Source: a virus
Lineage: Duplodnaviria > Heunggongvirae > Uroviricota > Caudoviricetes
Length of the DNA stretch: 19,879 nucleotides
Direction: 5' to 3' (one strand)
Virus record (IMG/VR): IMGVR_UViG_2681813223_000009
The position numbers are program-made. Positions 3,001-9,000 of this stretch are shown here, piece after piece. Each line of letters starts with the position of its first letter. Within the stretch, counting starts at the first letter, position 1.

Positions 3001-6000
3001 GGATTTTACTGGATACGTTTTGTTAACGCGGCAGGAGTGAAAGGTCCATGGAATGCTGAAAAAGGCACTCAGGCACAAACACAGATCGGCGTGAAGGCCA
3101 TCATTGACCAGATCCGCGATGAGGCTGCAAAGTCGCCGGTTGTGTCCGAGCTGCGTAAAGAAATAAAAAACGCGCAGGGGCAGGCTGTAAAGGATGCTGC
3201 AATTAAGACAACCGAAGTTGTAGGGACTCTCAGGGAAGAAACGACAAGAACGATTGGTGGTATTGAAACCCGCATTAGCACACTGGATTCGTCAACCAGT
3301 GAATCGCTTAATGAGGTCGACAAGCGCATCACTAAATTGGATAAAGAAGGCGGTGAAGCTTTTCTTGCAATGTGGTCAAAAAAAGCGGGAGTTGATGGTA
3401 TCACTGCGGGGATCGGGATTGTCGCCGGAAAAGACAGTGAAGGCAGGCCTGTAAGTCAGGTTGCAATTTCTGCGTCGCAGTTGTTTGTCTTTGACCCGAA
3501 TAATCCGGATAACACAGCCTATCCGTTTGCGGTATCAGGTGGCAAGGTAGTGATCCCGAAAGCGATGATTTATGACGCGGTGATTGAAACACTGGTGTCG
3601 CGGAAGGTTGTGGCGGATGAGGTAAAAGCCGGGGTAAGTATCACTTCGCCAGTTATCCGGAGTGCCGTTATTCAGAACGGAAACTTTCAGGTTGATTCTC
3701 AGGGTAACCTGAATATTGGAGGCCTTTTCAGTGTTACGTCACAAGGGCAACTGACAATTCGTTACTCTAATCAGAATGTAGGACTGGTGATCCGCAATGA
3801 TAAAATTGAGGTTTATGACCAGAATGGACGACTGGCTGTTCGCATAGGCAGATTACGCTGATCAGGAGGTGAGTATTGGAATACGGTTTTGCCATTTATA
3901 ACAGAAATAACGTTAATGTTACGGGCGTGCTGACTCCAGTATTTTTCCTGGACAGATTTACAGCGGAGTCTGGCTCAAAGACGTACACTAATAAACCCGA
4001 CGGGAAATCATTGCAGGCTGTATGTTGTTTATTTCCCTGGAATAATGTATTTGCGGATCGGAAAGTACCGAAGATAACCATTAATGACAATACGGTGACG
4101 TGGTCGAATCTTGAGCAGGGTATGGGATCTTATATTTATACATTCTGGGGATAAGTGTTATGTACGGTTTGAGCATTATGAAGCCGGATGGCAGCGTATG
4201 GATAAGTCCAGGTTTTACGCCGCAGTGTCTGATCAACAAAGGCACCATACCGGCGACTGAAAAGTCTTTTTTTAAAACATCAATCCCGTCAGGCAAAAGT
4301 TGTTTTTTCTTTATCAGAACAGAGAAGAAGGCCGATGTCATGTACACGCATGAACAGATTGATGGATATCATGCACTAAGGCTTCATGTAATTGTCAGGG
4401 GAACGAACCCTGGTGTTACGACGGTTTATGCTTTCGCGAATATGGTTACTCCACCTTCTGAGTATGGTATCGCCATGTATAACCCGGACGGTGAGATGAT
4501 TTATCATGGCGAAATGATGCTGCTTGACGCGAAGTTAATACCTGTTGATATCAAATTTGAAAAGGACCTTGGATATCCATGCGCAATCATGCCTGCACTG
4601 GTCGGGTATTATAACTGGAAAAGAACTCCTTATGATCGACCGATTTATACCACATCCACTGGTGCTACAGGAAATAAAATATATTCCTGTGAGCATTATT
4701 CCGGTGGTGCAACATGGGATATTCGAAAGCCGTATATAGATAAGGTCCTGGTTATTAATACATCAGTATATGATTAGTTGAAGCGAGTCTTTAATATTCA
4801 TTTAAAATGTCTAAAAAGATGTATTATTAAAAAGTTTAGCGTGTTATCTGAATACAGGATATCTTAAATGAAGAGTATAGCAACACTGGTTGTGTGTGCA
4901 ATCTCCGGGATTGCCTGTGTAAATTTATCTGCACATGCAGCAGAAGGAGAGCATACAATTTCTCTGGGGTATGCGCACTTTCAGTTTCCGGGACTGAAGG
5001 ATTTTGTAAAGGATGCGACTGCTCATAACAGGGAGACTTTCAGTCATTTCGTCAACAGAAACTACTTTTCTTCATTGGGCGAATATACAGATGGTCGGGT
5101 CAGTGGATATGAAGGCAAGGATAAAAATCCACAGGGCATTAATATCAGGTATCGCTACGAGATAACGGATGATTTTGGCGTTATCACCTCTTTTACATGG
5201 ACGCGTTCTCTCACTAACTCACAGACATTTATTGATGTGCAGTCAGCCGATCATACCAGGAAGATTAAGAATCCGGCAGCTTCTGCCAGAACGGATATCA
5301 GGGCGAATTACTGGAGTCTGTTAGCGGGGCCTTCATGGCGGGTTAATCAGTACATGAGTTTATATGCGATGGCAGGGATGGGCGTTGCTAAAGTTAGCGC
5401 TGACCTGAAAATTAAGGACAATATTAACAGTAGTGGCGGATTTTCTGAAAGCAACAGCACGAAAAAAACCTCCCTTGCGTGGGCTGCAGGTGCACAGTTT
5501 AACCTGAATGAGAGTGTTACACTGGATGTGGCTTACGAAGGTTCCGGCTCTGGCGACTGGCGCACGAGTGGCGTTACTGCTGGCATTGGCCTGAAATTCT
5601 GACCTGTATCCGGTAACCGTTTACTACCCGCTGTGATGGCGGGTTTTTTATTGCCCGTACAGGGCAAAAACCGTAAATTATGCGTGGGTGCCTTTCGGCT
5701 GATGGCTGGAGGGTGAACCTGAAGGCCTGATGTGGAAAGGCCCCGAGTCAACTTAACGTTAACCCGAGGCCCTAACACTTCGTACCTTAAGCAAGTAGAA
5801 GGTTAGCGCCTCTCTGTAAAAGGAGTCAAGCGCTATGTCGCAAAAATCGCTTATCACCGTCACAATTTGCATGACGGTTATCTTCACCATCTGGATGTTG
5901 CACGGTTCACTGTGTGAGTTCCGGCTGAATTTGTGGGGAGCGGAGTTTGCGGCGTTCTTACAGTGTAAGCAGTAGGAAAACCGCGACGGGGACGAGAGTC

Positions 6001-9000
6001 CCCGTCAACTGGTTGCTGAGGTTCAGCCGATATGGCACCCGTTTCAGGTGAGAGAATGAACGATAAAATTCTCTGGTATATGCAGCGTGTTGTGAGAAAT
6101 TCCCGCAACCCTGAATTTATGAATGAAGTTAAAGACGCCTGCCTTAAAAAGCAGGCGTTTTGTTTTGAGGCACCTGATGGCTTTTTGGTGCTGCGTTCTG
6201 TGCTCAGTGCTGATGGTATCCCTTATGTTCTGGTGTTGCTGGGCGTGTGTACGGGGAGTAACAGCGTTGAGCGTTACCTGCCGGAGGTGAAGACATTAAC
6301 CCATCTGGCTGGCGGACGCTGGGCTGAGTTCCATACGGCAAGGCGGGGATTTATCCGGCTGGGAAAACGACTGGGCTTTGAGCGAATGCCGGATGATGAG
6401 GATGGCTTCATGGTGTTCAGGATAGCGGTCTGACTGCTACAGTTTTCATCATTGTGTTTAAACCAACATTGTAATTCACATTCTGACCCTGCTCCGGCAG
6501 GGTTTTTTGTTATCCAGGGGGCCATTATGGGTGGAAGTAAAGGCGGTGGTGATACCAAAGTAAAACCAACAGCAGCGCAAATAGCACAGGAAGAAGTGGC
6601 CTGGAAAGGGTGGCAGGATTACAAAAATATCCTCCGCCCGGCTGAAGATAACTTCATGGAAAAGGTCGATGACCTGAACAGTGAGCAGCAGTACGACAAT
6701 ATTGCTGGCACCACAAATCTGGGGTATCAGAAACAGTTTGGCGAAGCACGGAAGGAGCTTGCGGGTAATCTTGCTCAGTCCGGCGTTGACCCATCCAGTG
6801 GTCGTTTTAATGCGGTAATGAATGCGAACCAGAGTGACCAGGTAACCGGGCAGATTGACACAACCACACGGGGGCAGGTATCGCAGGCAGATAAGTATGT
6901 TGCCGGGCTACAGGATGTTGCTGCTCTCGGTTCTGGTCAGAAGGCGGATGCGTTACAGAGTTTTAACTCTCTGGCAGACAGCAGTCTGGCAAAAGCTAAA
7001 TCGGATGCACAGGCGGCGTTTACGAAACAGCAGGGGCGAGCCTCTCTTGTTGGCGCTGGTCTGGGTGCGGCAGGTGCATATGCGATGCATAAGGCTGGCG
7101 GTAGCGGAGGAAGTGGCGGTGCTAAAACACCTGGCACCGGCGCTAATGCCATTCAGCATCAGGCTCAGAACTGGAGACTGTAATTATGGAGTATGGCAAA
7201 TACGAAACTCTCGCAAGGGCTGGTTATTCAGGAGCAGACCGCCCACAGGGTGACTGGCAGACGTCAGCAGCGCTGACACGCCAACAATACGACGACTGGC
7301 GAACCAGATATTTGCCCCGCGTGGCAAGGCTGGCTGACCTTGGGGAGAACAACAGTCTGATGAATGCACAGCTTGCACGGGTGGGAGGCCTTGCCACTTC
7401 CAGTCTCCGTACAGCGCAGATGGCGCAGGATAACCAGATGGCGAGATACGGGGTAAACCGCCCGGATAATCCCGACAGTAATACGCTGGGGTTACGTAAT
7501 GCCCTGGCAATTGCTGGCGCGAAAAATGGTATCCGTGAAGCCGAACAGGATCGCCAGATGAATATTCTGACGGGGGCTTCTGCACCGGCAAGACAGAAAC
7601 TGAGTGTTGGCGGCCAACTGGTGGCAGCGTAAGGGGGCAATATGGGATACGGTTTACTGGATATTGCAAATCAGTCGCGGCGTGAGGCATTACAGGGAAT
7701 AAGTGACGCAGACAGACGACGTGAAGAAATTGAGGCTGCGAACAAACAGATGGCGGCGCAACAGAAAGCGCAGAACAAGCAGAATATCGGTACGGGCATT
7801 GGTACGGGGGCGGCTATTGGCGCATCCGTTGGTGGTCCTGTTGGTGCTGTTGCTGGAGCAGTAATTGGCGGCATTGCTGGTTCTTTGTTTTAAGGAGTGG
7901 TGAATGAGCGGATTTGCACAGGGGTTACTTGCCGGATTCAGCACCGTTGACCAGGCAATGACCCGTCGTAAGGAGCTTGGTCTGCGTGAAGCACAGCTTG
8001 CCCGGCAACAGAAAAATAACGAGCGCGATTTTGAGTTTGCGCAGTCTCAGTTTGAACATAATAAAAACGTTGATCAGCGGAACTTTGATTACAGAGCCAA
8101 AGTTGACGACCGTAATTATGCACTGAAGGAGAGGGAGTTTAACGCTAACCAGAATTACCGGAATGCGTCACTGGGTATGGAGCAGCAGCGACTCCAGTTG
8201 CAGAAATACAACCAGCGACGGCTTGAGTATAACGATATGATTGCCCATAGCCAGCCACTAATGGAAGCGCTTGGAAAAGCAATTGAGGCTGGCGATCAGG
8301 AGGCTGCAACGCGTCTGTTCGGGCAGCTGCCAAAGGGACATCCATTAATTCTTATGTCAAACGAAGGCTATGCAGCGAAAGCGGGTCAGGCCGTGATCAA
8401 CCTGCAAAAAATCTTTGGTGATAAGCCGGACATGGCGATCGATTCGCTGAATACCCCGGAAAATCTCGATGTGCTTTCCGGCGTGTTTGCCCCGGAACTA
8501 CAACAGCGTATTGGCATGCCTGATTCAACCGGGGACAAAACGATAAAAGAGGCCAGGATTGGCAGTATCGTACCAGCGCAGCAGGAAGGGTACGTACTTA
8601 TTGGCCTTGATCTCACATACAGCGATGGCTCCACCGCGCATAAACCTGTAACAGAATACGGCAGTGCGCACCCTGATGATCAAACCGTGCTGGCGATACC
8701 CGTTGATAAGGCTATCGCTCAGGTCAGGGATCGCAGCAAATTTGCAGAGATATCGAAAAATTATGGTTATTTTATGCCGAAGCAGCAGGGACTTTCTCTG
8801 AAAGAGCTTCAGAAGGGGGCCAGCAACGTAGCGGCGGACGCGATCAAGAATGGCGGTAATGCTCAGGCTGCGGTGGATGAATATTATGCTGCGACTGGTT
8901 CACAACCGCATCAACAGAAAATTCAGCAACAAAAACTTCAGCAACAGGTTATCAACTGGGCGGGAGATGATCCTGACAAGCTGTCATTTGCCAGAAATGT

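Follow-up and report, generated by a model that had tools for sequence, protein, structure and literature searches.

The 19,879-nucleotide (nt) stretch of DNA analysed here (IMG/VR virus record IMGVR_UViG_2681813223_000009, Caudoviricetes; hereafter "the window", whose coordinates are used throughout) is 100% identical to Shiga toxin (Stx) phage 933W and to Sp5/VT2-Sakai. Between lom and a homologue of L0129, its plus strand carries an open reading frame (ORF) for a 46-amino-acid (aa) toxin of the Hok/Gef family, embedded in a 355-nt cassette at positions 5686-6040. Our data indicate that this cassette is very probably an intact hok/sok-type type I toxin-antitoxin (TA) module, the second in 933W/Sp5, with its own putative promoter, an mRNA predicted to switch conformation and a predicted antisense RNA.

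The toxin gene

The toxin ORF runs from an ATG at 5835 to a TAG stop at 5973-5975 and encodes MSQKSLITVTICMTVIFTIWMLHGSLCEFRLNLWGAEFAAFLQCKQ (46 aa). Its Shine-Dalgarno (SD) sequence, GGAG at 5822-5825, lies 9 nt before the ATG and, in the consensus structure described below, pairs with 5810-5813. An earlier note on this DNA had proposed a Hok/Gef-type toxin here on the basis of the ORF, its SD and an SLCE motif, and all three were borne out: the peptide contains SLCEFR...GAEFAAF and matches the Pfam HOK_GEF profile (PF01848) over positions 6-42 of 42 with 33.2 bits (E 4e-8), above the gathering score of 22. The profile of PHROG 251 ("MokW-like host killing") gives 85.8 bits. The best NCBIfam match is HokA (NF007290), which at 38.4 bits misses the equivalog cut-off of 89; judged by its sequence, the peptide is a Hok-family member, not HokA. 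In the family alignment that the note had suggested as a check, it shares 30% identity with Hok of plasmid R1 over the core and 37% with HokW over 35 core residues. All seven residues of the Hok logo, conserved in >80% of Hok peptides (M1, C16, T18, L30, C31, E32 and E41), are present as M1, C12, T14, L26, C27, E28 and E37, and a single hydrophobic stretch (L6-L22) lies near the N-terminus.

Relatives of the locus came from a scan of viral contigs and a search of E. coli genomes (a peptide-pattern scan of a genome collection returned four loci only). The seven logo residues are invariant or near-invariant among the related peptides, and the ORF is 46 codons long in 55 of the 56 distinct copies, the exception (L064) having an early stop that leaves 45 aa. 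The ratio of nonsynonymous to synonymous substitution rates (dN/dS) is ~0.2 across 31 distinct coding sequences, each 46 codons long, and all five differences between the ORF and its nearest relative are synonymous. The toxin ORF is thus a gene under purifying selection, neither a chance ORF nor a wreck; chance is ruled out by the Pfam and PHROG scores, by this dN/dS and by compensatory base pairs in the hairpin 3' of the gene (see below).

The gene is also already known. The earlier note's description of it as unannotated holds for the gene track supplied with the window and for the 1999 GenBank (AF125520) and RefSeq (NC_000924.1) phage records of 933W, but not for RefSeq bacterial genomes, where exactly this ORF is "Hok/Gef family protein" (WP_000078907.1), nor for newer phage records, one of which (from 2025) names it "MokW-like host killing". 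In a protein collection look-up the exact peptide sequence was found on at least 1000 contigs. The identical peptide is listed as "Hok 72_1589" in Table S2 of Escalera-Maurer et al. (bioRxiv 10.1101/2025.08.07.668861), where it represents a high-abundance 60%-identity cluster (Hok cluster 72) and was cloned under an arabinose promoter as plasmid LRP157. According to the preprint text, 42 of the 45 Hok homologues tested were toxic and the exceptions were 19_179, 60_1482 and 69_1540, so that 72_1589 was not among them; the same text reports that hok is enriched in prophages and that Mok, Sok and mRNA structure were deliberately left outside the survey's analysis (10.1101/2025.08.07.668861). The locus thus holds a catalogued, annotated and intact Hok toxin, and finding the gene adds little by itself.

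The cassette and its distribution

The left edge of the cassette is marked by the intrinsic terminator of lom (a hairpin followed by a T-run, 5626-5650, plus strand), which was recovered by a terminator scan. Among relatives in other genomic contexts, similarity extends from a -35-like TTGCC just past this terminator to a CACCC at ~6040. Among 5426 complete E. coli genomes, 1742 contain matches to the whole 355-nt query, with identities as low as 76%. In Stx phages the cassette follows lom, in lambdoid prophages it separates J from the tail-fibre gene, and in P2-like prophages it comes after ogr at the end; in one O157:H7 strain it lies beside the gene for ribosomal protein L31, flanked by a truncated traT and a hypothetical gene. 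The cassette, which has its own predicted promoter and fills the space from the terminator of lom to the next gene, is a self-contained "moron". Its placement is one typically seen for lysogenic-conversion inserts: behind a terminator, under its own predicted promoter and at cargo spots in three types of phage.

One E. coli strain, JNEC-KY172, carries three tandem cassettes (locus L015, 1001-2297) encoding three different 46-aa Hok variants. The regions corresponding to the 5' part of the predicted antisense RNA (see below) differ among the three copies, which suggests diversification for orthogonality.

Several individual placements are also of note. At the lambdoid J-stf junction (L017, L018) the cassette occupies the site where lambda has lom. 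At the right ends of P2-like prophages (L011-L014, L020) it comes immediately after ogr, and its host neighbours include serS, a tRNA cluster with pgsA, and ytfP. Two loci carry Firmicutes labels, one from a metagenome-assembled genome (MAG) of Planococcaceae (UBA3378, L019) and one from Vagococcus sp. WN89Y (L021); both hold a hok ORF, which scores in tblastn exactly as that of Salmonella enterica locus L020 does. A full cassette could be extracted from L021, where it encodes the same peptide as the P2-type copies of E. coli, and none from L019. Contamination or mis-binning seems a more likely source of these two copies than true presence in Firmicutes.

The predicted toxin mRNA

The toxin mRNA is predicted to start at G 5686, 7 nt after a -10 element, TAAATT (5674-5679), that is separated by a 17-nt spacer from a -35 element, TTGCCC (5651-5656). 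In 14 copies from four contexts this putative promoter (5651-5679, plus strand) retains its TTGCC and TAnnTT motifs amid diverging flanks.

From this start to the end of the cassette (5686-6040), folds and conservation outline a full-length hok-type mRNA. At its 5' end lies a tac element (GGGUGCCUUUCGGCUGA, 5686-5702), which falls on position 1 of the Rfam sok model and has fbi or ucb as alternative partners in the folds. A ucb-like box (AAAGGCCCC, 5736-5744), recovered in the RNAalifold consensus, would be the partner of tac in the processed form. GAGGC at 5766-5770 corresponds to the SD of mok when aligned to the Rfam sok model and to hokW, and a dcb or anti-SD box (GCGCCUCU, 5806-5813) pairs either with the toxin SD and start (closed form) or with this GAGGC (processed form). 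Downstream of the ORF follow a 9-bp stem-loop with a GAGA loop (GACGGGGAC-GAGA-GUCCCCGUC, 5985-6006), identified from sequence, folds and covariation, then a 3' tail segment (6009-6022) and an fbi element (UCAGCCGAUAUGGCACCC, 6023-6040) that is complementary to tac and with which similarity among cassettes ends. In a permissive search, the Rfam model RF01794 (sok) matched 5686-5848 end to end (35.6 bits, E 2.6e-6); this model is sense to the hok leader, and at hokW it covers the mRNA from the 5' end to the start codon with 113.5 bits.

The fold predicted for the full-length RNA (-153.7 kcal/mol; z-score -6.1 for 5686-6036) has tac clamped to fbi, 5686-5692 pairing with 6034-6040 and 5695-5702 with 6023-6030. 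All 14 diverse relatives folded form such a 5'-3' duplex (-30 to -36 kcal/mol), although their 3' sequences differ. Across 25 diverse copies, the full-length structure has 89.8% of its cells paired, where slid controls reach 35-44%; compensatory pairs number 15, and the covariation score is 0.144 (0.04-0.07 in the controls). The two tac/fbi helices are 98% and 91% paired in these copies and show one-sided changes only; compensatory changes cluster instead in the 3' stem-loop, in helices inside the coding region and in a long-range helix joining 5787-5801 to the 3' tail at 6009-6022, which has three compensatory pairs (CG/UA, GC/AU and GC/AU). This helix constitutes a second fold-back element beside tac/fbi. 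In R1, full-length hok mRNA does not bind Sok (PMC9841398), and the pairing of 5787-5801, the site for the 5' end of the predicted antisense RNA, with the 3' tail fits this rule.

The stem-loop at 5985-6006 is 96.9% paired in the 25 copies, with compensatory changes in four of its nine pairs. The GNRA-capped 3' hairpin described in the earlier note is present, with its GAGA loop, though the cap is not GNRA in all relatives. By analogy with R1 (PMC9841398), it is best read as the protective terminal stem-loop of processed hok mRNA rather than as the terminator of the toxin gene. The strong, GC-rich 9-bp stem would suit a Rho-independent terminator, in which case the transcript would end at ~6006 and lack a fold-back element. 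We regard this as extremely unlikely: past the hairpin, the plus strand reads AACUGGUUG and has no U-run, and only the minus strand is terminator-like; conservation in unrelated contexts continues to 6040; and compensatory changes accompany the pairing of 6009-6040 with the 5' end and the antisense target. The fbi element lies downstream of the 3' hairpin and beyond the interval that the earlier note had assigned to the locus (5835-6006). On the minus strand, the same hairpin followed by CGGTTTTCCT (5984-6017) was scored as terminator-like and might stop antisense transcription arriving from downstream genes.

A predicted Sok-like antisense RNA

On the minus strand, opposite the leader of the toxin mRNA, a conserved promoter and a terminator hairpin predict, from sequence, a Sok-like RNA of ~58 nt (5736-5793). 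It would comprise a 5' recognition part (5793-5774), a terminator hairpin (5773-5739) and a terminal UUU (5738-5736). The putative promoter (5800-5829) consists of a -35 element TTGACT (5829-5824), an 18-nt spacer and a -10 element TAACCT (5805-5800). All 56 distinct copies have TAACCT and the TTG of the -35 element, and the spacer is 17 nt long in most. The sokW promoter of 933W has the same -10 (TTGCCT, 17 nt, TAACCT) and an annotated 5' end 7 nt downstream; by analogy with annotated sokW we infer that the antisense RNA of the present locus extends from ~5793 to ~5736. The earlier note had proposed scanning this strand for a promoter: a strict consensus scan did not recover one, while the conserved TAACCT and TTG point to one through homology with sokW.

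The antisense hairpin has a predicted fold of -33.3 kcal/mol (z-score -6.2) and forms in 36 of 36 distinct relatives, with differing upper-stem sequences. This count comes from folds of the individual sequences, as indels in the upper stem mis-registered the MAFFT alignment and made pair counts for this hairpin uninformative. The 5' 20 nt of the predicted RNA are the most variable part of the entire cassette, as expected for a specificity determinant. Folding of the region on both strands, which had been proposed as a check of the toxin locus, thus recovered a hok-type fold in the sense direction and a terminator hairpin in the antisense direction.

A predicted switch on 3' processing

In R1, the 3' terminal stem-loop stabilises processed hok mRNA (PMC9841398). 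We modelled the processed form of the present RNA by cutting it after the stem-loop, at 6008, in the manner of R1 3' processing. In the fold of this truncated RNA, tac (5686-5696) pairs with the ucb region (5734-5744), and GAGGC (5766-5770) pairs with GCCUC (5808-5812) of the anti-SD box. The mean unpaired probability rises from 0.32 in the full-length RNA to 0.43 in the truncated form for the hok SD, and from 0.24 to 0.56 for the hok AUG. Blocking 5735-5795 to mimic a duplex with the antisense RNA restores the SD hairpin (SD 0.33, AUG 0.22). In the 25 diverse copies, 90.2% of cells are paired in the truncated structure against 35-45% in slid controls, with 14 compensatory pairs; the ucb helix is 99% paired, with one compensatory pair. 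The helices specific to the switch are nearly invariant, which in this model is compatible with switching but does not prove it.

These folds suggest how the cassette could operate. An mRNA of ~355 nt would start at G 5686 from its own promoter, and in its full-length form tac would be clamped to fbi, the Sok site paired with the 3' tail, and the SD and AUG held in a hairpin with the anti-SD GCCUC. We propose that, because of these clamps, the RNA would be neither translated nor bound by the antisense RNA. Slow trimming of the 3' end back to the stem-loop at 5985-6006 would let tac move to ucb (5736-5744), and the freed GAGGC (5766-5770) would take up the anti-SD, opening both the ribosome-binding site (RBS) of the toxin and the antisense target. 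The short-lived ~58-nt antisense RNA would then pair with the leader, returning the anti-SD to the SD and probably leading to cleavage by RNase III. Under this proposal toxin would therefore be made only once antisense synthesis stops, and the 46-aa Hok would insert into the inner membrane and kill or lyse the cell.

Absence of mok and control of toxin translation

In R1, a 70-codon mok frame must be translated up to the hok SD for hok to be translated (PMC9841398). At the present locus no ATG, GTG or TTG follows GAGGC 5766-5770 at the canonical mok position, and the same is true of every relative examined. Stops upstream of the hok ATG occur at TAG 5796-5798, in hok's own frame, at TAG 5804-5806 and at 5817-5819; the third frame is open over 5791-5871 and contains no ATG, GTG or TTG before the hok ATG. 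The earlier note, which had also failed to find an overlapping mok frame, gave the second of these stops correctly and placed the first one position too far downstream (5797-5799), and its conclusion holds throughout the subfamily: no conserved mok-like frame was found at the canonical site, in any of the three frames, as an in-frame N-terminal extension, or from AUG 5730 and GUG 5732. The absence of mok is a real departure from the R1 paradigm, and we met no description of mok-less hok loci in the literature searched.

Our tentative explanation, to which we give somewhat less than an even chance, is that cluster 72 represents a natural mok-less branch of hok/sok, in which GAGGC has been kept as a switch element and three mutually exclusive RNA pairings control the toxin without a leader peptide. 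GAGGC would strip the anti-SD from the toxin SD after 3' processing, and the Sok-like RNA would repress by reclaiming GAGGC.

Translation of hok might instead still be coupled to a short upstream ORF (uORF), a miniature mok that has relocated. The leader contains an ATG at 5730 (8 codons) and a GTG at 5732 (24 codons, ending at TAG 5804-5806), preceded by GAAGG at 5721-5725; a ribosome terminating at TAG 5804-5806 would melt the anti-SD hairpin, and the antisense RNA, which covers nearly the whole uORF, would block it. The AUG and GUG with the upstream GAAGG are retained in all relatives, the 24-codon frame in the window stops exactly at the base of the hairpin 5804-5835, and R1 requires only that mok translation proceed as far as the hok SD (PMC9841398). 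In 12 of 18 lineages the uORF comes within 35 nt of the hok AUG, some overlapping hok by 83 nt. However, its reach to the anti-SD hairpin in 12 of 18 lineages is at the level of shuffled sequences (10.2 expected), and its frame, length and stop position are not conserved, end points among relatives ranging from +65 to +230. The remaining six lineages have no uORF near the hairpin, including copies with an identical toxin (the L009 type). The GAAGG and the start codons also belong to helices that both conformations share, in which 5711:5720 varies between GC, GU and AU; their conservation can therefore be explained by structure alone. Nor is the site a homologue of the canonical mok start. The upstream ORFs at 5730-5806 are therefore probably not a mok equivalent. 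We consider coupling to a uORF unlikely, and control independent of mok the more likely of the two.

The missing mok could also mark a decaying or silenced remnant, as the earlier note had suspected in calling the locus possibly partly decayed: a toxin that is harmful if expression is forced, natively untranslated since mok was lost, and accompanied by a vestigial antisense RNA. The low Rfam score would agree with this, and E. coli K-12 is known to have several inactivated hok loci on its chromosome, one example being the pseudogene mokA, which lies next to IS150. The conservation of the locus speaks strongly against decay. Besides the constant ORF length and the dN/dS of the toxin gene, both promoters and all RNA boxes (tac, fbi, ucb, the SD hairpin and the 3' stem-loop) are conserved, and several helices carry compensatory changes. 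Moreover, the cassette is mobile, is present in about one-third of complete E. coli genomes and occurs in tandem arrays with diverged antisense 5' regions, a pattern that points to ongoing selection. We thus find a remnant very unlikely.

Our preferred reading, an intact hok/sok-type cassette with a switching mRNA and an antisense RNA, has several observations weighing against it. A consensus promoter scan picked up neither the toxin nor the antisense promoter; both were recognised only because of their conservation and homology to sokW. The RF01794 score of 35.6 is under the gathering score of 59, and at gathering thresholds Rfam reports nothing in the window. No clear intrinsic terminator lies 3' of fbi. 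No covariation signal comes from the core tac/fbi, tac/ucb and GAGGC/GCCUC pairs, as these do not vary, and the predicted opening of the SD is modest (0.32 to 0.43). R1 hok needs translation of mok (PMC9841398), which this locus lacks. The toxicity reported in the preprint text comes only from overexpression with a foreign SD (10.1101/2025.08.07.668861), and searches of the literature turned up nothing on the transcripts, processing or translation of this locus.

The hokW-sokW locus of the same phage

A hok-type locus, hokW-sokW, has already been studied in Sp5, where it is a proven type I TA system that assists lysis after induction (PMC8621323). It is de-repressed on RecA-dependent induction and doubles phage release (PMC8621323). 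We considered whether the ORF at 5835 could be this published locus and rejected the identity: HokW of Sp5 is 51 aa long and begins MKQQKAM (Takada et al. 2021, PMC8621323), and the published primers and leader fall at 18747-18771 (minus strand) instead of at 5835. hokW-sokW thus lies ~13 kb downstream of the toxin ORF, on the opposite strand.

The window still contains both the 5' end of hokW mRNA (GGGTGCTTGAGG, at 18771, minus strand) and the 3' fbi region of this RNA. Between them (context 18560-18771, minus strand), ten N at 18656-18665 replace ~198 nt relative to the 933W record NC_000924.1, which is the core of the annotated hokW/mokW/sokW locus. Since the N run masks the hokW core in the window and mokW, hokW and sokW are all annotated in NC_000924.1, 933W/Sp5 carries two hok-type loci. 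The published study deals with one hok locus only (PMC8621323).

The two loci share a common layout, with a GGGUGC 5' end, fbi, a ucb-hairpin-GAGGC arrangement, a GGUUAGC...CCUC anti-SD and, as a prediction in the present locus, an antisense -10 of TAACCT. They differ in that hokW has an in-frame mokW ATG 8 nt after GAGGC, whereas the present locus has none, and in that the hokW leader is 20 nt longer. The toxins differ as well, the 51-aa HokW and the 46-aa peptide sharing only the 37% identity over 35 residues given above. We found no match between the recognition regions of SokW and of the predicted Sok-like RNA, and the 5' part of the latter is not complementary to the hokW leader. Cross-regulation by SokW was also considered and is unlikely, as the recognition regions lack complementarity.

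Relation to other type I systems and possible functions

The cassette resembles hok/sok/mok of R1 in its Hok-type peptide, its tac/fbi clamp and the alternative pairings of ucb and of the mok SD with dcb, as well as in the 3' terminal stem-loop and the antisense RNA directed against the leader, both predicted here (R1: PMC9841398). In R1, however, the 70-codon mok is needed (PMC9841398), whereas no start codon follows the equivalent of its SD in the present locus. R1 Hok is 52 aa long and ends in AYESGK, compared with 46 aa and QCKQ here, and the R1 mRNA is 398 nt long, compared with ~355 nt predicted here. In Escalera-Maurer et al. (10.1101/2025.08.07.668861), the peptide of 72_1589 is identical, and neither the regulatory anatomy of the locus nor its lack of mok is covered.

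If translation is indeed independent of mok, the locus would invite comparison with tisB/istR-1 and zorO/orzO, which have no leader ORF and whose antisense RNAs bind the 5' untranslated region (UTR) away from the toxin RBS (PMC5397157). Like these systems, it would have an inactive primary transcript and an active processed form, and a small RNA whose binding site lies upstream of the RBS and whose effect comes through structure or a standby site, leaving the SD uncovered (PMC5397157). Processing is at the 5' end in tisB/istR-1 and zorO/orzO and presumed to be at the 3' end here, and the systems share no sequence or structural homology. The likeness is one of analogy only.

The hok/sok system of R1 stabilises plasmids and reduces plating of phage T4. 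By analogy, the present cassette could stabilise the prophage, help lysis on induction or take part in phage exclusion. In the reference records of 933W, as in the functional study of Sp5, hokW-sokW figures as the sole hok locus, and a second intact cassette beside lom could mask phenotypes such as lysis timing, phage yield, prophage stability and phage exclusion. If Stx phages do carry two orthogonal hok/sok modules, the published phenotypes of hokW-sokW deletions may be buffered. The subfamily is very common: about a third of complete E. coli genomes have it, and its hosts include prophages of the Stx, lambdoid and P2-like types. It seems to have dispensed with mok and could therefore serve as a natural test of the hok mRNA switch without translational coupling. 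Likewise, the fast-diverging antisense 5' part, including that of the tandem triplet, offers a handy system for following the evolution of specificity among co-resident type I modules.

Finally, the end of the cassette bears on the annotation of the gene behind it. The annotated ATG of the L0129 homologue, at 6032, falls within the fbi element, and a second ATG at 6056 (window 6032-6058) is preceded by a better SD (GGTGAGAGA) and may be the true start of this gene.

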